A stretch of 64,000 nucleotides of DNA from a virus, in IMG/VR virus record IMGVR_UViG_3300028581_000020, positions 40,528-104,527 of that record. One strand, written 5' to 3'. The translations under genes were made by a program, and so were the position numbers. The notes under the pieces are model-generated. The model had not been told where the DNA came from. It saw nothing but the letters and a program-made list of their open reading frames with translations, and did not search any database. This document shows positions 21,560-62,671 of this stretch, one piece after another. How positions within the stretch are numbered: position 1 is the stretch's first letter; each line of letters starts with the position of its first letter.

Positions 21560-22880
21560 TTAGTTTCCGACCCTCTCGACGTTGAAATAAGTATTTGCAG
21601 TAGTTCCCGAAATTGTGAGTGTGCTTGCCGAGTTGTTTCCAAGGCCGTATAGGAAGATTTCAACGTAATCCCCAGCATTCAACTGAAGCGTCGTGCTTCC
21701 ATTGAACGCGTTGATTGTCGTTGCGGCAGATGTTCTGTACCCAAACAGACGAGCGGACGCTCCGTTTTTGTAGAGGTAAAGCCCGTAATCAGATGCGAGC
21801 ACGTTAGCTGAGGCGAGCAGGACTGCGGAGCTTATGCGGTACTTACCCGATACGGGTGCAGTGAATCTGCTGTTTGCTGAGCTAAATGATCCGGTCGTGT
21901 CAAACACTGCGGAAGAAAAAGCTACCTTAACGAAACTATTATTCGTCGCGATCCCTGTTTGGTTAGACCCTCCAAGTGTTGCATCCATCGCGACTGTTTC
22001 ACTCGCCGCGATCTGCGACGGGCCGGAGATACGCGAGATTGAGAAGTAGTTGTCAACAACACTACCTCCGACATTCAATGCTCCACCTGAGTTTTGGAAA
22101 ACTTGAATCCCTACCGTGTCCCCTGCATTGAACAAATATTCTGTTGCACCATTCAAAAACGTACCTGCAGAAGCCGTAGGGTCGAATATGTATGCCAGTG
22201 TGCGGATATTGCTTCCGTTTACACGCAGACGAACCTCACGACCGTTCGTCGAGCTTGCGGCAAAACTTACTTGAGTCGTAATCCTATACCAGCCGGGGAC
22301 TGGAATCGTGTAGAGACTTGTACCGGTATTCCAAGCCCCGTGCGTGTCGCTGATTGCGGCATCGAACGCTACGAGTGTTCCGGTGCTGTCTGGAATTGAC
22401 TGAGTGGCTGCGCGGCCTGTAGTCATTGCCACGACGCGAGTGTCCGTCTCAGACGACATCTGCACTTGAGACGACCATCCGGTGATGGGGACGAGGAAAG
22501 ATCCGCCAAAAACCGTGTTGTTGGCCCAAGCCGTCCCTAACGTGCCATTGAAATAATTATCTGCCTGTTGGCTAATGATTGCGACCGTTGTTGGAGAACC
22601 TGTGGCTACGAGAATATTGCCTGACCATGGGGTTTTAGATGCGGTAAGCGCCCCCACAACAGAGTTGTTTACGGCTCTAGTTATGTCCATAGAAAGGCCG
22701 CTTGGCAGCGAAATAGAAACTGGTGATCCAGAATTTGTTCCAGAAGTAACTGTAAACATGACTTCAAGAGAATCACCTACGCGCCGATACTTGGCGATAG
22801 ATGCAGAAACAGTTCCTAGGCCAACGTATGTCGGAGTGTAGCTCTGCCAGTCCGTGACTGGCGTTCCCTGCGTGATGATC
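21560..22880. repeat. direct repeat copy 1 (shared fibre C-terminal module)
   Basis: Ungapped match to 59822-61142 at offset 38,262; identical over 21560-21599, 21605-21769 and 22431-22822; mostly synonymous differences elsewhere. Confidence 0.97.
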
Positions 22881-23500
22881 TGCGGAGAGACGCGGACGTC
22901 GGATAGCGCCATCGTGTAGGCGGATGCCGACGTGCTGCCAACGTGGATACAGAGGCGGTAGCTGGTCGAGTTAGAGGCTGCCTGGAAAGTGCCTCTCCAA
23001 CTTTGTTGAACAGTGGTGCTTTCAATCGAAGAAGGGGCCGGTTGAATCAAAATCGAGTTGGTAACATCGTAGATCCAGACCGAAAGATCGCTCGTGGCGT
23101 AAGTCCCGCTGACTACCTCGTAGGGGAACGTAATTTGCAGGACTTTACCTTTGTCGGAATTATCAATCGTGAATGCATTCGAGACCCCGTTGCCTTGCCG
23201 GTTGTTTGCATCCTTGACGAGGTTGAAGTCAGCTCCCGGACGAAGCGGCGTTGTGGTCGAGCGCGAGATCGCAAACGTAGGGCTACCGCCCGTGCAATCG
23301 ACCGGAGAGCTGGCTGCCGAATCAGCATACCCCGCCCATCCGAGAGTATCTTTTCTAGCGTAGGCGTTTTTTATGTAGTTGCGGGAAGAGCTTGATCCGC
23401 TGTCGAGGAAATCTGCATCTAAAAACCTAGGGGTTTGCGCAAACGTAGTGCTCGCCCCAAGGGCTGCCGCTGCCAGTAAGAGGCGTTTGAAAAATTTCAT
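21560..23500 (-). CDS. fibre / receptor-binding protein with signal peptide and tandem C1q-like domains
   Basis: Leader MKFFKRLLLAAAALGASTTFA-Q; C1q-like motifs YTIPVPGWY and FTAPVSGKY...LNAGDYVEI; AAGGAG RBS. Confidence 0.8.
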   Translation of the reverse strand: MKFFKRLLLAAAALGASTTFAQTPRFLDADFLDSGSSSSRNYIKNAYARKDTLGWAGYADSAASSPVDCTGGSPTFAISRSTTTPLRPGADFNLVKDANNRQGNGVSNAFTIDNSDKGKVLQITFPYEVVSGTYATSDLSVWIYDVTNSILIQPAPSSIESTTVQQSWRGTFQAASNSTSYRLCIHVGSTSASAYTMALSDVRVSPQIITQGTPVTDWQSYTPTYVGLGTVSASIAKYRRVGDSLEVMFTVTSGTNSGSPVSISLPSGLSMDITRAVNNSVVGALTASKTPWSGNILVATGSPTTVAIISQQADNYFNGTLGTAWANNTVFGGSFLVPITGWSSQVQMSSETDTRVVAMTTGRAATQSIPDSTGTLVAFDAAISDTHGAWNTGTSLYTIPVPGWYRITTQVSFAASSTNGREVRLRVNGSNIRTLAYIFDPTASAGTFLNGATEYLFNAGDTVGIQVFQNSGGALNVGGSVVDNYFSISRISGPSQIAASETVAMDATLGGSNQTGIATNNSFVKVAFSSAVFDTTGSFSSANSRFTAPVSGKYRISSAVLLASANVLASDYGLYLYKNGASARLFGYRTSAATTINAFNGSTTLQLNAGDYVEIFLYGLGNNSASTLTISGTTANTYFNVERVGN

Positions 23501-45720: not shown

Positions 45721-45971
45721 ATGTGGATCTTGGTTACGTGGCAACACGTAGGAAGCGTATACTTGTGGAGCAATGGGAGTTGCCGTTCGCTACCTGCCAA
45801 GTGTGGGAAGCGCATGGACCCCCGGGAGCCCGCCACATTCAGCACAAGTATGCGGCATGCTACTTAGATGAGTTTGGAAAGAAGCAATGGCTACGAGAGC
45901 CTGAAACTGATTTTGAAACGGTGTCGGGAGCACGCACGGCAATTCTTATCTTCATGGAGACTTTAAAATGA
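45717..45971 (+). CDS. hypothetical protein
   Basis: ATGA-coupled start at 45717. Confidence 0.55.
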   Translation: MNVDLGYVATRRKRILVEQWELPFATCQVWEAHGPPGARHIQHKYAACYLDEFGKKQWLREPETDFETVSGARTAILIFMETLK

Positions 45972-46060
45972 CAGCAGATTACGGATGGAAATTGTGGGAG
46001 CTTGCAATTATTGTGGGTCTCATTATGCTAGTTGGAACAAAATTAGGGGTGATTAAATGA
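45968..46060 (+). CDS. 30-aa single-TM peptide (not in the ORF track)
   Basis: MTADYGWKLWELAIIVGLIMLVGTKLGVIK*; GGAG RBS; ATGA overlaps at both ends. Confidence 0.55.
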   Translation: MTADYGWKLWELAIIVGLIMLVGTKLGVIK

Positions 46061-46752
46061 GTTCAAAAAGTCGTGTGAGGCCAGGTGTTCCCGCGAGTCG
46101 GAAGGACCCTATGCCACCGAAATTTCCGGTGGAGATCCCCCCTGCAAAAAAAGAGCATTGGCAGGAGGAGCCGGTTAAAGGATGGCTGGACCCCTGGGAG
46201 TATTTCATCCAGGATCAAGTCAAACAAAAATACCCCGAATTACTTGCACTCACGCCTAGGCGTATGCAAGTGGTTGATCCCAAGTGGGCGGGGCGTGACG
46301 AGGAGTCCCGCCTGCAATGGTGGGCATGCTTTCTCTGGGCATTGGCGGGCCCTGAATCTAATCGTTCTCGGACGATGATCTATGTTGAGGGGACGATGGA
46401 TAAGGACCCCGTGACGGGCTTCCAGGTGCGCTCAGAGGGGTTACTCCAGCTGAGCTATCAGGACGTGCCCAACTATAAATATAAGGGTGAAATCTCCTGG
46501 GAGAAGGATCGGGAGCTTGCGCGCTTTGATTATGAGACGAAAGCGAAGTTCGGAGATGGACTGCGTACGTTGCATTCTGCTTACGCGAATCTTGACTTAG
46601 GTCTCTTCATCATGCGCAAGCATTTGGTTGAATTCAACTCGGATCGATCGTTTGAGGATGCACTAGGCAAATACTGGTATGTGATGCAAACGCGTAACAA
46701 GGAAGAGTTTGCGCAGGTGTTGGCTGGGCTTAAGACTCGGGGGATGCGGTGA
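46057..46752 (+). CDS. lysozyme / SLT-superfamily enzyme, Bdellovibrio DslA-like
   Basis: ALAGPESN (catalytic ES), YVE, SEGLLQLS, NLDLG, KYWYVM; no signal peptide. Confidence 0.7.
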   Translation: MSSKSRVRPGVPASRKDPMPPKFPVEIPPAKKEHWQEEPVKGWLDPWEYFIQDQVKQKYPELLALTPRRMQVVDPKWAGRDEESRLQWWACFLWALAGPESNRSRTMIYVEGTMDKDPVTGFQVRSEGLLQLSYQDVPNYKYKGEISWEKDRELARFDYETKAKFGDGLRTLHSAYANLDLGLFIMRKHLVEFNSDRSFEDALGKYWYVMQTRNKEEFAQVLAGLKTRGMR

Positions 46753-47051
46753 GAATCATCAAATTCGTCTCACGCGAAATTAGCGGTGGGCAGATTGCGC
46801 TCTATCCTATCTATGAGAATGGCAGGGAGGGTGCGCTTGCGTGTAAGTGTACGCCTGAAGTTGCGCACATGTTCATGAGCGCGCCAAGCCTTATGCGTAT
46901 GGCAGAGCAAGCAACTGGCTCCCCGGACCCCATCATGCGCAGTCTCGCGCGTACCTCGCTCGCACTCGCGAAGCGTGCGCCAGACGTTCTCCCTGCAAAT
47001 AGCCGCTCTGATGCGTTCATGAGCATCATTAGGGGGCTTCGGGATGGCTAA
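46749..47051 (+). CDS. hypothetical protein
   Basis: GTGA-coupled ORF. Confidence 0.55.
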   Translation: MRIIKFVSREISGGQIALYPIYENGREGALACKCTPEVAHMFMSAPSLMRMAEQATGSPDPIMRSLARTSLALAKRAPDVLPANSRSDAFMSIIRGLRDG

Positions 47052-47714: not shown

Positions 47715-48083
47715 ATGGAAATCAGTGCAAATGAAATTGAAATCAACGGCCAAAAGTACGTGAAGAAAGGCACACAGTCGCAGGCAACATCGCCTGAAGG
47801 ACTTCCCTACGTCATCATCCGCAGCGAGGGGGCTGGCGTCTTTGCCGGTTACTTGAAAGAGCAGAATGGTCAGGAAGTCGTGATCCTTGAGTCTCGTCGT
47901 CTTTGGTATTGGTCTGGTGCCGCATCGCTCAGTCAGCTTGCCATTGACGGTACATCGAAGCCCAAAGACTGCAAGTTCCCCGAGGCTGTGTCGTCACAGA
48001 AGATTTTCAAGGTGCTTGAGATCATCAATGTGACCCAGAAAGCAAAAGACTCGATTGCGAGCGTGAAGCCGTGGCAACTGTAG
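47715..48083 (+). CDS. conserved phage protein (DUF6948-like)
   Basis: YVIIRSEGAGVFAG...RRLWYWSGAASLSQLAIDG. Confidence 0.75.
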   Translation: MEISANEIEINGQKYVKKGTQSQATSPEGLPYVIIRSEGAGVFAGYLKEQNGQEVVILESRRLWYWSGAASLSQLAIDGTSKPKDCKFPEAVSSQKIFKVLEIINVTQKAKDSIASVKPWQL

Positions 48084-48292
48084 AGGTTGATTCCGGCTCC
48101 GGCGACGGCTCCGGCGACGGCTACGGCTACGGCTCCGGCGACGGCGACGGCTCCGGCTACGGCTCCGGCGACGGCGACGGCTCCGGCTACGGCGACGGCT
48201 ACGGCTCCGGCTACGGCGACGGCTCCGGCGACGGCGACGGCTCCGGCGACGGCGACGGCTACGGCTCCGGCTACGGCGACGGCTACGGTTGA
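48071..48292 (+). CDS. Gly-rich (GDGYGSG)n protein
   Basis: Frame reads G-x repeats with x = S, D or Y. Confidence 0.55.
   Translation: MATVEVDSGSGDGSGDGYGYGSGDGDGSGYGSGDGDGSGYGDGYGSGYGDGSGDGDGSGDGDGYGSGYGDGYG
48095..48287 (+). repeat. tandem 6-nt unit array (GGCTCC/GGCGAC/GGCTAC)
   Basis: About 32 hexamer units read directly. Confidence 0.95.
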
Positions 48293-57110: not shown

Positions 57111-57423
57111 GTCAGAGAAGGCGTTTGCAGCGAGGGTCAGAAAAGAAATCGAGGCGATGCCCCGTACGTGGTGCTTTAAGCCCTTCACCGGCTCGGTACG
57201 TGGGATCCCGGATCTCATTTGCTGTGTGTCCGGGTGGTTTGTGTCGCTTGAGTTCAAGAAAGCCGGCGCTGCCAAGGACTCATCGAGAGAGAGGCTGCAG
57301 GAATATGTGGCCTCAAAGATTCGGTTTGCGGGGGCGCCCATTGCTGAGCACCGTGTGACCCCGGCTTCCTGGCCTGCGATTCGCGAGCGGCTTGTGCAAA
57401 TGGCGGGAGAGACTTTCTCTTAA
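57097..57423 (+). CDS. VRR-NUC / PD-(D/E)xK nuclease
   Basis: ESE...RGIPDL...LEFK...LQ. Confidence 0.8.
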   Translation: MRRPESEKAFAARVRKEIEAMPRTWCFKPFTGSVRGIPDLICCVSGWFVSLEFKKAGAAKDSSRERLQEYVASKIRFAGAPIAEHRVTPASWPAIRERLVQMAGETFS

Positions 57424-57848
57424 AGCCTGCGGTAATCGTAGTAGTCTTTTGAGAAGCACTTGATTCCGCTCATTTTCCAGATGTCGTCAACTCCGATGCG
57501 CTCCTCGACTTCGACCCGCTTGATACAGGCACCTAGGAAAGTGCGCATGCACTTGTACGTGTGGTGGAAAATGCAGGGAGCGTCCGCACAAAACAGGTAG
57601 CGCTTATCCGCAAACTTGCAGACGAAATCAGCACTGCGAAGCGTGCTACGCAGGAACGCGTCCTCTAGATCAAGCTTCCGGTACTCAAGCTTTAGGCAGT
57701 CGGTGCCTTTGACTTCCGAGCACCGGGTTGTGACAAGGCCCTTCTCGCTCTCGGATGCAATAAAGATTTGCCGCACGAGATCCGGGAACTGCGTGATGGA
57801 TCTCTCGGTTGCACATGCGGTAAAGAAAAGGGCCAGCAGGTATTTCAT
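57420..57848 (-). CDS. Cys-rich lipoprotein (possible o-spanin)
   Basis: MKYLLALFFTA-C lipobox; last gene of the lysis cassette. Confidence 0.55.
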   Translation of the reverse strand: MKYLLALFFTACATERSITQFPDLVRQIFIASESEKGLVTTRCSEVKGTDCLKLEYRKLDLEDAFLRSTLRSADFVCKFADKRYLFCADAPCIFHHTYKCMRTFLGACIKRVEVEERIGVDDIWKMSGIKCFSKDYYDYRRL

Positions 57849-58135: not shown

Positions 58136-58276
58136 TTAGGCTTTGCCGAGGAATTTCTTCAGGCCGTTGATGACAAGCTGAACAATGCTGTTTGACTTGA
58201 AGGCCGGGATCAAAGCAAGAGCTTCAGACACCGCGAGAAGCGCACCGAGAATGAGAGCGATCGTCGAATTTTCCAT
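58136..58276 (-). CDS. 46-aa hydrophobic protein, putative holin (not in the ORF track)
   Basis: MENSTIALILGALLAVSEALALIPAFKSNSIVQLVINGLKKFLGKA*; GGGGA RBS. Confidence 0.6.
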   Translation of the reverse strand: MENSTIALILGALLAVSEALALIPAFKSNSIVQLVINGLKKFLGKA

Positions 58277-58293: not shown

Positions 58294-58788
58294 CTAGGTT
58301 TTCCTAGCTACCCAAGGATCCAGGAACCCCACAATGGAGAACCTTGGAAACCCTTTTAAGTTACGCTTGACACGATAGACCCCATCGCCGTCCGAATCAA
58401 GGCCGGAAGGGTTTACATTTCCCTCGACCGTCAAAAAATTACCCTTGCGATCGGGCGAGGTCTCAACGATGCCGGCATGCCCGCGCCCTGAGTCATCCGT
58501 TCGCTTCCAAATGATGATGCGCCCGGGGCTGGCCTCTTTTCGCTGGTAAAGCTTGTTGCGATTCCAGAGGGTGAGGCAGTGCTCTGAAAATTGGATGTGA
58601 TCCAGGCCCGACTGCTCGGCTACTTTCTGCAGGACAGTGCACACAAACGCTGCACACCAAGGCTCGCCCTGCGCCACGCCGTCTACCGTCTTCTGGAAGC
58701 CTTCAATGATGTCGCCGGCATTGGCGCCTGACTCGTGGACGCCGAGATAGATTCTAGCCATGTTCACGGTTGCTAGGTGCAGATCCAT
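58294..58788 (-). CDS. CHAP-domain endolysin
   Basis: GVHE..N.G, PWCAAFV (Cys), GHAGIV (His), TVEGN. Confidence 0.9.
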   Translation of the reverse strand: MDLHLATVNMARIYLGVHESGANAGDIIEGFQKTVDGVAQGEPWCAAFVCTVLQKVAEQSGLDHIQFSEHCLTLWNRNKLYQRKEASPGRIIIWKRTDDSGRGHAGIVETSPDRKGNFLTVEGNVNPSGLDSDGDGVYRVKRNLKGFPRFSIVGFLDPWVARKT

Positions 58789-59075
58789 TAGCGTATCCGC
58801 TTCAGCTCTCCGCTGATCTCGCCCAGCTTACGATTCATGTCTTGGAGGGTTGCCTGCAACCGTTCCTCTTTATCATCTAGCCGGGTTTCGATCACGCCAA
58901 ATCGAGTGACACTTGCGGCCTGCGCCTCGGCCTGGGCGTACTTCAGCGTGTTGATGTCGGCTCTAAGCATCGTAAACCAAATCGTACACGGGATCACGAC
59001 GGCGCTTAGAAACCAAACCAGGCCTCGGAGCAGTTGCCCCGAAACCCCTGCGATCTTGTTGTGCCATTCGGCCAT
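58788..59075 (-). CDS. single-TM coiled-coil protein (holin/antiholin-like)
   Basis: One TM then a coiled coil; TAATG coupled to the endolysin. Confidence 0.5.
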   Translation of the reverse strand: MAEWHNKIAGVSGQLLRGLVWFLSAVVIPCTIWFTMLRADINTLKYAQAEAQAASVTRFGVIETRLDDKEERLQATLQDMNRKLGEISGELKRIR

Positions 59076-59078
59076 GAG

Positions 59079-59822
59079 CTATCCCCCGCAGACAGCCATT
59101 CTAAACGGATTTTTCGGATCGCGGTAGTAGCCTTTGACCCAGTTTTCTCGTGGCCCGCGGTTTGTTTCATGCACTTTTATGCAGCCATCAATCCACGCTT
59201 TCCCCCACCAGGGGAGCTTCACTTTCCGTAGGAATTTGATGCGGAGATCAGCCAGCCCCCAGTTTTTTGAGAGCCGCAGCCCTAGCCCCAGCCAGAGAAG
59301 CGAGATCGGATCGGGCTCCTCACCTGCTGCCAGCTCAAGGATTGCCCAGTCACCAGGCTGAAGCATCTCAGTCCACGACCAACGTCCGGGATCGCGGGGG
59401 TTGTACTGAAACCAGTGCTTGCGCCCATACTCGAGAATCGCCCAGGCATGCCCTGAATTGTAGTGGTGCGAGAGGATTGCAAGCGACACCACGTTGTCGT
59501 GCGACTGCCCGATGTCAAGCGGCACGAGGTCGCCTTCTGCATTCTCAAATCTGAGCTCGTGCCCAGGCCACCGCCCGTGGAGCCCCGGCTCAATCTCAGT
59601 CAGCTCCATGTGGCGCTTAAAAGCCAGGAACCCTTCCACTGATCTCGCCTCCGGGTCAAGCTCAAGGAGCCCCTGCGCCAGCGCGTAGCTCGCGTTCTCG
59701 TTGGTTGAGCGCACAGGATATTTCGGACTCAACGGGGGAGCTAGGTTGCCCGGCTCATCTTCAAACAAACCCCCGCCATCGGGAGCAATGTAGCGCTCGA
59801 CGAAGGCGGAGAGGTGGTCCAT
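59079..59822 (-). CDS. hypothetical protein (Trp/His-rich, enzyme-like)
   Basis: 247 aa, GC-rich like phage B; NEN and SHDN motifs; TAATG overlap with the fibre stop. Confidence 0.7.
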   Translation of the reverse strand: MDHLSAFVERYIAPDGGGLFEDEPGNLAPPLSPKYPVRSTNENASYALAQGLLELDPEARSVEGFLAFKRHMELTEIEPGLHGRWPGHELRFENAEGDLVPLDIGQSHDNVVSLAILSHHYNSGHAWAILEYGRKHWFQYNPRDPGRWSWTEMLQPGDWAILELAAGEEPDPISLLWLGLGLRLSKNWGLADLRIKFLRKVKLPWWGKAWIDGCIKVHETNRGPRENWVKGYYRDPKNPFRMAVCGG

Positions 59823-61142
59823 TAGTTTCCGACCCTCTCGACGTTGAAATAAGTATTTGCAATAACTCCCGAAATTGTGAGTGTGCTTGCCGAGTTGTTT
59901 CCAAGGCCGTATAGGAAGATTTCAACGTAATCCCCAGCATTCAACTGAAGCGTCGTGCTTCCATTGAACGCGTTGATTGTCGTTGCGGCAGATGTTCTGT
60001 ACCCAAACAGACGAGCGGACGCTCCGTTTTTATATAGGTAAAGCCCGTAATCGGATGCGAGCACGTTCGCGGAGGCAAGTAGGACTGCAGCACTTACGCG
60101 ATACTTACCTGACACCGGGGCCGTGAACCGACTATTGCCGGAGCTAAACGATCCAGTTGTATCGAAGACTGCGGAAGAGAAGGCCACCTTAACGAAACTA
60201 TTGTTCGTTGCTACTCCTGTTTGGTTAGCCCCTCCAAGTGTTGCATCCATCGCGACTGTCTCACTGGCCGCGATCTGCGATGGGCCGGAGATTCGGGAGA
60301 TGGAGAAGTAGTTGTCAGCAACACCTCCTCCGACGTTTAATGCTCCACCTGAGTTTTGGAAGACTTGAATCCCTACCGTGTCCCCTGCGTTAAACAAATA
60401 TTCTGTTGCACCATTCAAAAACGTACCTGCAGAAGCCGTAGGGCCGAATATGTATGCCAGTGTCCGGATATTGCTTCCGTTTACACGCAGACGAACCTCA
60501 CGACCGTTGGTCGAGCTTGCGGCAAAAGCTACTTGAGTCGTAATCCTATACCAGCCAGGGACTGGAATCGTATAGAGACTTGTACCGGTATTCCAAGCCC
60601 CGTGCGTGTCGCTGATTGCGGCGTCGAAAGCTACCAGTGTTCCGGTACTGTCTGGAATCGACTGAGTGGCTGCGCGGCCTGTAGTCATCGCTACGACGCG
60701 AGTGTCCGTCTCAGACGACATCTGCACTTGAGACGACCATCCGGTGATGGGGACGAGGAAAGATCCGCCAAAAACCGTGTTGTTGGCCCAAGCCGTCCCT
60801 AACGTGCCATTGAAATAATTATCTGCCTGTTGGCTAATGATTGCGACCGTTGTTGGAGAACCTGTGGCTACGAGAATATTGCCTGACCATGGGGTTTTAG
60901 ATGCGGTAAGCGCCCCCACAACAGAGTTGTTTACGGCTCTAGTTATGTCCATAGAAAGGCCGCTTGGCAGCGAAATAGAAACTGGTGATCCAGAATTTGT
61001 TCCAGAAGTAACTGTAAACATGACTTCAAGAGAATCACCTACGCGCCGATACTTGGCGATAGATGCAGAAACAGTTCCTAGGCCGACAAATGTAGGAGTG
61101 TAGCTCTGCCAATCCGTAACAGGCGTTCCCTGCGTAATAATT
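59822..61142. repeat. direct repeat copy 2 (shared fibre C-terminal module)
   Basis: Matches 21560-22880; identical blocks 59867-60031 and 60693-61084. Confidence 0.97.
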
Positions 61143-62671
61143 TGAGGCCCGACAACAACATCATCAAATGCTAGTGTGTATGCACTAGTGGACACGCTGC
61201 TAACATGAAGAATTAAGCGATAGCTGGTGCTGTTTGAGGCAGTTTGGAAGGTTCCACGCCATTTACTGCCACCAATGAAATTTTCAATAGAACTTGGTGC
61301 TGGCTGAATGAGTGTTGCATTTGTAATATCATAAATCCAAACAGTCATGTCGCTTGTAGCAAAGGTTCCGGAGACAACTTCGTAATCAAACGAAATGCTT
61401 TGTACTTGTGCTTTGTCAATGGAGGCGATTGTGAAGTCATAAGAGACGCCTTGTCCTTGACGGTTCGCGGCATCCTTTACAAAATTAAAATCATAAGCTC
61501 CGCGAAGAGGCGTTGTGCTCGAAACGTCCCATGTTACGGTAGCAATGCCTCCAGTCCCATCAACGGGAGCTGTTCCTGGAGCGTTAGTATATGTGGTCCA
61601 GCCGGTAGTAAGGCCAGACTCAGCATCGCCTTCTAGAACATAATTAACTACTTGCGTCTTATCTAAACGATAAGGAGCAGCACTAGAAGCGTCGTTCTTA
61701 AAATAAGGGTGTCCATCAGATCCGGGATAGAAGCTTCCATAACCAGAAGCAACAGTAGGACCAGTGGTAGGAGTTGAAAGTTCTACCATACGAGCGGCGT
61801 CTTCTAAACTAATAAGACCCGTTCCGTTAGCGTTAATGCTAATATTCCCATTAGTATCCGTGCTAGAAATTTCATTACCATCAACGCGAATGTTATCGAC
61901 ATCTAGCTGCGTAATTCCTGACATGGCTCCGGCATCATTAAGAGCAACGGTACTACTTTGAATAAAGTTACCAGTCGTTCCATCCCAACGAGCAACGCGG
62001 TCATCAACAACAACACCAGAAGCCGCAATGCCCCCAGAACCACCGACTACGCGCCATCGTGCGGTTGAATCGTCATATTTAAGAATGACAACACCGCCGT
62101 TTTTAAGGGAAATAGTCGAACCGTTTCCAGTAATAATACGGTTGGCGGCAGAAGGATTTGAATCTTCGTTTGGAATACTAATATCACTGCCGCTAGCATT
62201 GATGACATAAAGAACTTTATCTCCGGAAGCTGCAACAATACCGCGCAACGACGTGACAGCGCCGGTAAGGCGAATCGAACCATAAGTAGCGTTTACAAGA
62301 GCGTCAACGTTGCCAGTAGAGGCGTCGTTTTGGTCAGTGACTACAATACCATTACCGTCTAATAGAAGACCGGACGAGATTACCGTTCCAGAACCATTAC
62401 GAGCAAGGATTTTATTAGCGTCACCAACTTCAGTTTTAAGTGAAGATAGTGCAAGATCTTGTACGGTGTTGCTGTCTCCGTCAATCGTTTTATTTGTAAG
62501 CGTGGCTGCGTGGGCTTCCGTTACAACCGGACTAGAAGATGTTCCATTATGATAATTAAGCTTTCCATCTCCGCTAGTGACATCCAAATCACCCTGGTCG
62601 TCGGCTGTGGAGGCGGATTCTGGACGAAGGTTTAAACCCTTCCAAATTTTAGTGAAAACATTGGCAGACAT
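59822..62671 (-). CDS. tail fibre / receptor-binding protein with tandem C1q-like domains
   Basis: AT-rich phage A N-terminus (TLTNKTID, VARWDGTTG, VDNIRVDGN) joined to the shared C-terminus. Confidence 0.85.
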   Translation of the reverse strand: MSANVFTKIWKGLNLRPESASTADDQGDLDVTSGDGKLNYHNGTSSSPVVTEAHAATLTNKTIDGDSNTVQDLALSSLKTEVGDANKILARNGSGTVISSGLLLDGNGIVVTDQNDASTGNVDALVNATYGSIRLTGAVTSLRGIVAASGDKVLYVINASGSDISIPNEDSNPSAANRIITGNGSTISLKNGGVVILKYDDSTARWRVVGGSGGIAASGVVVDDRVARWDGTTGNFIQSSTVALNDAGAMSGITQLDVDNIRVDGNEISSTDTNGNISINANGTGLISLEDAARMVELSTPTTGPTVASGYGSFYPGSDGHPYFKNDASSAAPYRLDKTQVVNYVLEGDAESGLTTGWTTYTNAPGTAPVDGTGGIATVTWDVSSTTPLRGAYDFNFVKDAANRQGQGVSYDFTIASIDKAQVQSISFDYEVVSGTFATSDMTVWIYDITNATLIQPAPSSIENFIGGSKWRGTFQTASNSTSYRLILHVSSVSTSAYTLAFDDVVVGPQIITQGTPVTDWQSYTPTFVGLGTVSASIAKYRRVGDSLEVMFTVTSGTNSGSPVSISLPSGLSMDITRAVNNSVVGALTASKTPWSGNILVATGSPTTVAIISQQADNYFNGTLGTAWANNTVFGGSFLVPITGWSSQVQMSSETDTRVVAMTTGRAATQSIPDSTGTLVAFDAAISDTHGAWNTGTSLYTIPVPGWYRITTQVAFAASSTNGREVRLRVNGSNIRTLAYIFGPTASAGTFLNGATEYLFNAGDTVGIQVFQNSGGALNVGGGVADNYFSISRISGPSQIAASETVAMDATLGGANQTGVATNNSFVKVAFSSAVFDTTGSFSSGNSRFTAPVSGKYRVSAAVLLASANVLASDYGLYLYKNGASARLFGYRTSAATTINAFNGSTTLQLNAGDYVEIFLYGLGNNSASTLTISGVIANTYFNVERVGN

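Follow-up and report, generated by a model that had tools for sequence, protein, structure and literature searches.

A Dsl-family lysozyme of Bdellovibrionota ancestry in a podovirus: a possible second lysin for the prey wall

The podovirus described here encodes a Dsl lysozyme, a type of enzyme known from Bdellovibrio, in a form that is adapted to the phage. We consider this variant to be both real and new; Dsl proteins have not previously been reported in phages within the searchable literature, among which no paper linking DslA with phage lysins was found and none in which DslA and endolysin occurred together. The gene lies in a 64-kb stretch of viral DNA (hereafter the window), with which a 104.5-kb IMG/VR record ends. 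Its presence suggests that the host of the phage is a Bdellovibrio-type predator and that the phage needs a second enzyme in order to leave the prey. The best explanation, to which we assign a probability of roughly 40%, is that the lysozyme is freed by lysis of the holin/CHAP/spanin-like type and then cuts the de-N-acetylated sacculus of the prey; the enzymatic activity, the preference for a deacetylated wall, the identity of the host and the target wall are what we infer from the evidence below. To date, DslA has been known solely as the tool with which the predator leaves its prey. A lysis programme that opens two walls would, if true, include the first lysis function aimed at the wall of a third organism, and it would explain how virions exit from a three-membered system of phage, predator and prey.

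Family Assignment and Active-Site Residues

The protein of 231 aa is encoded by an ORF on the + strand (46057-46752), in which all of the strings on which the original prediction was based (ALAGPESN, YVE, SEGLLQLS, NLDLG and KYWYVM) are present. When all PDB chains were searched with phmmer, the structures of DslA (Bd0314 of B. bacteriovorus HD100; 6TA9, 6TAB, 6TAD and 6TAF) were the sole matches under an E-value of 1 (7.9e-7). An AlphaFold model of the window protein, with 23 homologues in the alignment (pLDDT 88.5), was compared with the PDB using Foldseek, and the predicted fold matched 6TAF, 6TAD and 6TA9 with an E-value of 2e-5, a TM-score of 0.71-0.73 and an rmsd of 2.4 Å; the next fold matches, which were SLT70, MltE, hen lysozyme and phage lysozymes, had E-values of 0.2 or higher. 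By sequence and by predicted fold, DslA is the only significant solved relative of the window protein, and the assignment to the DslA family, which had been made from the order of the motifs, proved to be correct and specific. The Pfam SLT family (PF01464) gave no match even at an E-value of 10, and neither Pfam nor PHROGs placed the protein in a family. Moreover, the protein has a second catalytic Glu, unlike the single-Glu SLT transglycosylases; in DslA, this residue makes the enzyme a hydrolase instead of a transglycosylase (PMC7511926).

The residues that are responsible for catalysis and for the selection of the substrate in DslA are E143/S144, E154, S166, M150 and Y228-W229 (PMC7511926). 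According to the alignment, their equivalents in the window protein are E100/S101 (codons 46354-46356 and 46357-46359), E111 (46387-46389), S126 (46432-46434), M107 (46375-46377) and Y206-W207 (46672-46677). The likeness thus comprises the ES motif, where the central helix ends, the second Glu (on strand beta-1) and the Ser that holds it, the Met and the YW, all within a predicted two-lobed modified lysozyme fold. E100, S101, E111, S126, Y206 and W207 are invariant across the 23 close homologues, and the position of M107 varies. In DslA, Y228-W229 and M150 sterically exclude N-acetylated GlcNAc; DslA, DslB and DslC are specific for or prefer the deacetylated wall and reject the acetylated one, and all homologues with an equivalent of E154 also retain Y228 (PMC7511926). 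The suggestion that a change from YWS to YWY might alter the specificity did not hold up, as the motif defined in the paper is YW (PMC7511926) and family members differ freely in the residue that follows it (Y, S, L, A, F or H; A in both DslB and DslC).

Compared with DslA, to which it is about 21% identical, the window protein is encoded by a phage, has neither a signal peptide nor a lipobox nor either of the two disulfides, and carries an Asp (D136) in place of S176 of the proposed GlcN pocket. It also has an insert of 20-30 residues after the beta-hairpin that is common to its own subfamily. In the HD100 genome, one ORF matches 6TA9 end to end, and a profile of the window subfamily gave E-values of ~1e-39 and ~1e-36 at two DslB/DslC-type loci (1.34-1.36 Mb) as against 3e-15 for DslA. 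On these profile scores, the window protein is nearer to DslB (Bd1413) and DslC (Bd1440), both of which prefer the deacetylated wall (PMC7511926), than to DslA. Unlike the window protein, however, DslB and DslC are secreted lipoproteins with cysteine pairs, which are chromosomally encoded and expressed throughout predation.

Ancestry and Distribution

The family is a small one; among 1.84 billion representatives, it comprised 325 clusters at an E-value of 1e-3 or lower and 16 at 1e-30 or lower. Nine of the 14 genome loci that were obtained in the profile search bear the names Bacteriovoracaceae, Bdellovibrionales, Bdellovibrionia or Oligoflexia, and two MAGs with Dsl loci that are labelled "Proteobacteria bacterium" belong to the same GTDB phylum sample (Bdellovibrionota). 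The profile matched 100 of the 401 sampled Bdellovibrionota genomes, often with 2-6 copies in each, compared to 2 of the 401 control genomes, which were drawn from the phylum of the Dongiaceae MAG and include the seed. The phage-type clade is nested in clades in which only Bdellovibrionota occur among the named members (support of 95 in the first tree; 93/76 and 91/89 in the second). The Bdellovibrionota ancestry of this clade was shown at the level of sequence, and the gene was most likely taken from a Bdellovibrionota genome. A best match to generic SLT proteins of non-predators, which had been named as a refuting result, was not obtained; the nearest relatives of the window protein form this clade, whose named members are all Bdellovibrionota, and the profile counts given above likewise did not refute the proposal.

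Members of the wider Dsl-like family were also found in Acidobacteriota and Bacteroidota, in a Dongiaceae MAG and in numerous viral contigs whose GC content ranges from 29 to 58%, and so the family by itself is no proof of a predator host. Previous work reported homologues in varied bacteria that also possess CE4 deacetylases and found no members in epibiotic predators (PMC7511926). A metagenome scan with the phage-type clade returned cellular-type copies only, no match was obtained with tblastn against 50,697 isolated phage genomes, and a fold search of BFVD gave nothing at an E-value of 0.001 or lower. Three family members (P0112, P0066 and P0073) are fused to PG_binding_1; a search for longer forms yielded one protein, and Pfam detected PG_binding_1 in one of ten longer representatives and nothing else.

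Loss of the Export Signal and the Disulfides

The absence of a signal peptide had been noted from the sequence, and it was borne out for both of the possible starts of the protein: no N-terminal hydrophobic stretch exists with either of them, the maximal Kyte-Doolittle mean over 12 residues being -0.02 versus 2-3 in the secreted homologues. DslA and nearly all of its relatives are lipoproteins or otherwise secreted, with a Cys pair that joins the FCP motif to the C-terminus and, in many of them, a second pair. Of the DslA disulfides (C117:C253 and C182:C199), neither is found in the window protein, which has a single Cys (C91); the FCP motif is replaced by VDP, and a C-terminal Cys is lacking. 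P0008, P0010 and P0089 are the only ones of 35 close homologues that are likewise devoid of both the C-terminal Cys and the N-terminal hydrophobic stretch. Together with the window protein, they form one clade (support 89/90, inner node 98/84; 98 in the first tree), the four sequences of which are 44-48% identical. The loss of the signal and of the disulfides in one lineage is what would be expected for an enzyme that is made and folded in the cytoplasm. Most of the Dsl copies in viral contigs, on the other hand, bear a signal peptide or a lipobox.

P0008, P0010, P0089 and a protein of a related podovirus (L019:9452-10516) begin with a short motif rich in Trp, Phe and Lys (such as WFKKK or LFKKK), which is followed by a Pro-rich linker. 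This motif may be a helix that associates with the membrane or the wall. In the window protein, the linker is present, basic and rich in Pro, but the Trp/Phe/Lys-rich motif is not.

Position of the Gene and the Lysis Cassette

The podovirus unit (21560-59821; 38,262 bp, ~57% GC) carries terS, terL and the genes for the portal, capsid, tail, internal virion proteins and fibres as well as the lysis cassette on the - strand, and the early and replication genes on the + strand. The lysozyme gene belongs to a + strand operon that consists of small early genes, the lysozyme and genes for an HNH protein, DUF6948, primase, helicase, exonuclease and DNA polymerase. An AGGGGTG Shine-Dalgarno-like site precedes its ATG at 46057, and translation could alternatively begin at M19 (46111), as it does in the database copy P0001. 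The ATG overlaps the stop of an upstream ORF of 30 codons (45968-46060, +) as ATGA, and the lysozyme stop overlaps the GTG start of the next gene (46749-47051, +; 100 aa, no family) as GTGA; by these overlaps on both sides, the gene forms an integral part of the early/middle operon. The 30-codon ORF encodes one hydrophobic helix and has a GC content of 0.39 versus 0.53 in its neighbours. It may represent a tiny membrane peptide that is coupled to the lysozyme, or else noise and no gene at all. The base composition of the lysozyme gene is the same as that of its neighbours, by which a recent unselected insertion was ruled out. A virion-associated entry lysin was also rejected, as the gene is located in the early operon with no internal virion protein genes around it.

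As the original prediction stated, the lysozyme gene is not part of the lysis cassette, and the phage already has a CHAP endolysin. The CHAP gene (58294-58788, -; 164 aa, PF05257, PHROG endolysin, no signal peptide) is 11.5 kb away on the opposite strand. It is accompanied by a 95-aa protein that, given its single membrane helix at the N-terminus and its tail resembling a coiled coil, is a holin or i-spanin-like candidate (58788-59075, -), a holin-like hydrophobic protein of 46 aa (58136-58276, -), a 94-aa protein and a Cys-rich lipoprotein of 142 aa with the lipobox FFTAC, which is an o-spanin-like candidate and closes the cassette (57420-57848, -). The Dsl protein resembles a canonical endolysin in being a cytoplasmic wall hydrolase without a signal. 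Its gene is not beside holin or spanin genes; just the putative hydrophobic ORF of 30 codons lies upstream. Proteins identical to the lysozyme and the CHAP endolysin have been recorded for 10 contigs, which reach lengths of 70 and 124 kb.

Relatives That Pair CHAP with Dsl

An alignment search with the helicase identified L019/L071 as the nearest relative in IMG/VR (helicase 47%, primase 38%), whereas the primase as a single query found nothing in IMG/VR. In this related podovirus (IMGVR_UViG_3300033149_000442), L019:9452-10516 encodes a protein of 354 aa, the first half of which is a CHAP domain and the second half a Dsl domain that shares 29% identity with the window protein (E 6e-15). The fusion gene directly follows a fibre gene and is itself followed by small membrane-protein and lipoprotein genes. 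The same two domains that are separate in the window phage thus occur in a lysis cassette as a single polypeptide. The L019 Dsl domain branches elsewhere in the tree and, judging from this placement, is probably a separate acquisition. The lipoprotein of L019 (102 aa) is placed in the same way as the 142-aa one of the window, and both are candidates for an outer-membrane spanin.

An alignment search with CHAP added two more relatives (L127 and L136). The Dsl gene is absent from another relative, G804, which is 92% complete, and is therefore accessory; it was probably gained more than once. A CHAP gene and a Dsl gene also occur together in the unrelated viral contigs L027 and L137, and this pairing was found in four phages. 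In L137, a signal-bearing protein of 644 aa (L137:4646-6580), which is homologous to the 646-aa fibre/adhesin-like protein of the window, is encoded beside a CHAP gene and the gene of a Dsl lipoprotein.

Host of the Phage

We consider it fairly probable that the phage infects a member of the Bdellovibrionota. When the predatory host was first proposed, the claim lacked an independent basis; it has since become likelier owing to the nesting of the gene, a prophage and the fibre module. The complete 3.43-Mb Bdellovibrionota genome G155 contains a podovirus-like prophage (C1, ~1,231,500-1,270,400; L068-L070) with genes for terminase, portal, capsid, tail, an internal protein of 2494 aa and fibres. 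In its lysis cluster, a holin (phrog_1299), a lipoprotein, a 197-aa protein (phrog_3000) and a Dsl lipoprotein are encoded, after which come RusA and a tyrosine integrase. Because of this prophage, it can be said that phages of Bdellovibrionota carry Dsl genes in lysis clusters. The Dsl protein of G155 is exported, which suggests that the enzyme does not attack the wall of the cell that produces it, since the cell would otherwise die early.

Two copies of a 1.7-kb fibre module flank the podovirus unit, which lies within a phage of ~40% GC. One of the copies belongs to the gene of the 646-aa fibre/adhesin-like protein (21560-23500, -; BclA_C and C1q domains, signal-like N-terminus) and the other to that of a 949-aa fibre (59822-62671), the C-terminal part of which is 87% identical to the former at the DNA level over 1.7 kb. 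The copies are offset by a fixed 38,262 nt and are exactly identical over 392 nt (22431-22822) and over 165 nt (21605-21769). No integrase was seen in the podovirus, and its presence in the 40% GC phage may reflect real nesting by homologous recombination or a join made by the assembler. Of 396 Bdellovibrionota genomes, 8 contained near full-length homologues of the fibre module (34-37% identical; best E 2e-84), compared to 1 of 391 genomes of the control phylum (E 1e-25). The Bdellovibrionota homologues extend over ~600 residues within ORFs of 897-1033 aa (L122-L125), and the best cellular homologues of the 646-aa protein are from Bdellovibrionota genomes. A search of 401 Bdellovibrionota genomes for a close prophage relative found none, the portal matches being only 28-34% identical and occurring in three of the genomes.

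Escape from the Bdelloplast and Alternative Explanations

The explanation that we prefer would involve the following course of events. A Dsl gene would have been captured from Bdellovibrionota and would have lost the lipoprotein signal and both disulfides, which would allow the product to fold in the cytoplasm, while the inverting pair of glutamates (E100 and E111, with S126) was retained. Y206-W207 and M107 would also have been retained and would exclude N-acetylated GlcNAc as they do in DslA. Transcribed with the early and replication genes, the enzyme would accumulate harmlessly inside the host cell; early expression is harmless because, without an export signal, no wall can be reached before the cell is opened. 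Release would occur only upon the opening of the host by the separate holin/CHAP/spanin-like cassette, and the freed enzyme would then cut glycan strands that the acetylated wall of the host does not offer. If the Tyr, Trp and Met confer a preference for the deacetylated wall, the enzyme cannot open the acetylated sacculus of the host. With an intraperiplasmic predator as the host, the target would be the de-N-acetylated prey sacculus of the bdelloplast, which would be the second wall that the virions have to cross. Such an escape through two walls is plausible, although we hold it with less than even confidence. The CHAP amidase/endopeptidase that is freed at lysis could by itself cut the peptides of the prey wall, and a second enzyme is therefore not strictly required. 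Counted against the preferred explanation are also the lack of a close prophage relative in the Bdellovibrionota genomes searched, the absence of Dsl from G804, D136 in place of S176, the pelagiphage-like portal and the occurrence of the family in other phyla.

The enzyme could instead be an ordinary auxiliary endolysin, with the Dsl muramidase and CHAP both acting on the host's own wall, the place in the early operon being incidental and no prey wall being involved. The fusion of CHAP and Dsl in the lysis cassette of L019 has the usual architecture of a two-domain endolysin, the PG_binding_1 fusions resemble the classic endolysins of phages of Gram-negative bacteria, the pairing with CHAP recurs in four phages, and the window protein is cytoplasmic and signal-less like the lysins that depend on holins. 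Against such a role, Y206, W207 and M107, the counterparts of the acetyl-excluding residues of DslA, are kept, and all three of the tested Bdellovibrio enzymes reject the acetylated wall (PMC7511926). Furthermore, most of the Dsl copies of phages and prophages, that of G155 included, are exported, which would be suicidal for a cutter of the own wall unless it were held inactive, and the gene is both remote from the lysis cassette and missing in the near-complete G804. We regard this role, the main alternative, as somewhat less likely than the preferred explanation. It is more doubtful that the host is a non-predator which received a Dsl-like gene by transfer and in which the enzyme acts on a partly de-N-acetylated host wall or has no role in lysis. 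This would agree with the presence of the wider family in other phyla and in viral contigs of diverse GC content, with the co-occurrence of homologues and CE4 deacetylases in diverse bacteria (PMC7511926), and with a portal whose nearest counterparts among cultured phages are those of HTVC010P-type pelagiphages (44-45%); base composition gives no clue to the host because the contig joins phages of 57% and 40% GC. Nevertheless, the window copy falls within the clade of named Bdellovibrionota and not on the branches of the other phyla, the fibre module independently indicates Bdellovibrionota, and among the podovirus proteins that were scanned there was no CE4 deacetylase.

Least probable of all, in our estimate, is an early non-lytic role or none, whether as a moron that remodels or senses wall fragments or takes part in phage exclusion, or as a decaying passenger. 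The gene is indeed accessory within the lineage and stands amid small early genes with translational coupling on both sides, but, as it lacks an export signal, its product stays in the cytoplasm and has no access to the peptidoglycan before lysis. The intact catalytic and substrate-selecting residues, the conservation of the clade over four sequences as divergent as given above, and a base composition that fits the neighbouring genes also speak against a non-lytic or decaying gene.

The two-wall explanation may be put in more general terms, although we offer the generalisation only tentatively and would not bet on it: the phages of periplasmic predators would run a lysis programme in which the CHAP set opens the predator and a captured Dsl enzyme opens the prey sacculus. 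Dsl would then take three forms, namely the signal- and disulfide-stripped one of the window phage and its three relatives, the CHAP-fused one of L019, and the lipoprotein of the G155 prophage and L137. Specificity for the deacetylated wall, if present, would provide a testable answer to the question of how phages escape from the bdelloplast. In addition, Dsl could serve as a marker gene for predicting Bdellovibrionota phages in metagenomes, and a disulfide-free Dsl should be easy to produce for biochemistry.

The proposal has a counterpart in mycobacteriophages, which use two lysins, LysA and LysB, for two envelope layers, the LysB esterase cutting the mycolyl-arabinogalactan link of the host. 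In both cases the host sacculus is opened by one enzyme and a further barrier, which would otherwise trap the virions, by another; unlike in the LysB case, the second barrier in our proposal would belong to the prey, which is a third organism. The position of the gene can be compared with that of the T7 gp3.5 lysozyme, an amidase that is encoded among the genes for DNA metabolism, away from the holin, and that also regulates T7 RNA polymerase. Both are signal-less wall hydrolases encoded in the early/middle region of a podovirus. In contrast to gp3.5, the fold of the window protein is unrelated, and no RNA polymerase gene was found among the annotated genes of the podovirus.

A 247-aa protein (59079-59822, -), for which neither Pfam nor PHROGs gave a match, heads the lysis cassette. 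In the early operon, an ORF of 73 codons (48071-48292, +) with 75% GC consists almost entirely of Gly-Ser/Asp/Tyr dipeptide repeats with a DNA period of 12 or 18 nt, and its opposite strand reads as an Ala-Val-Ala-Gly repeat.
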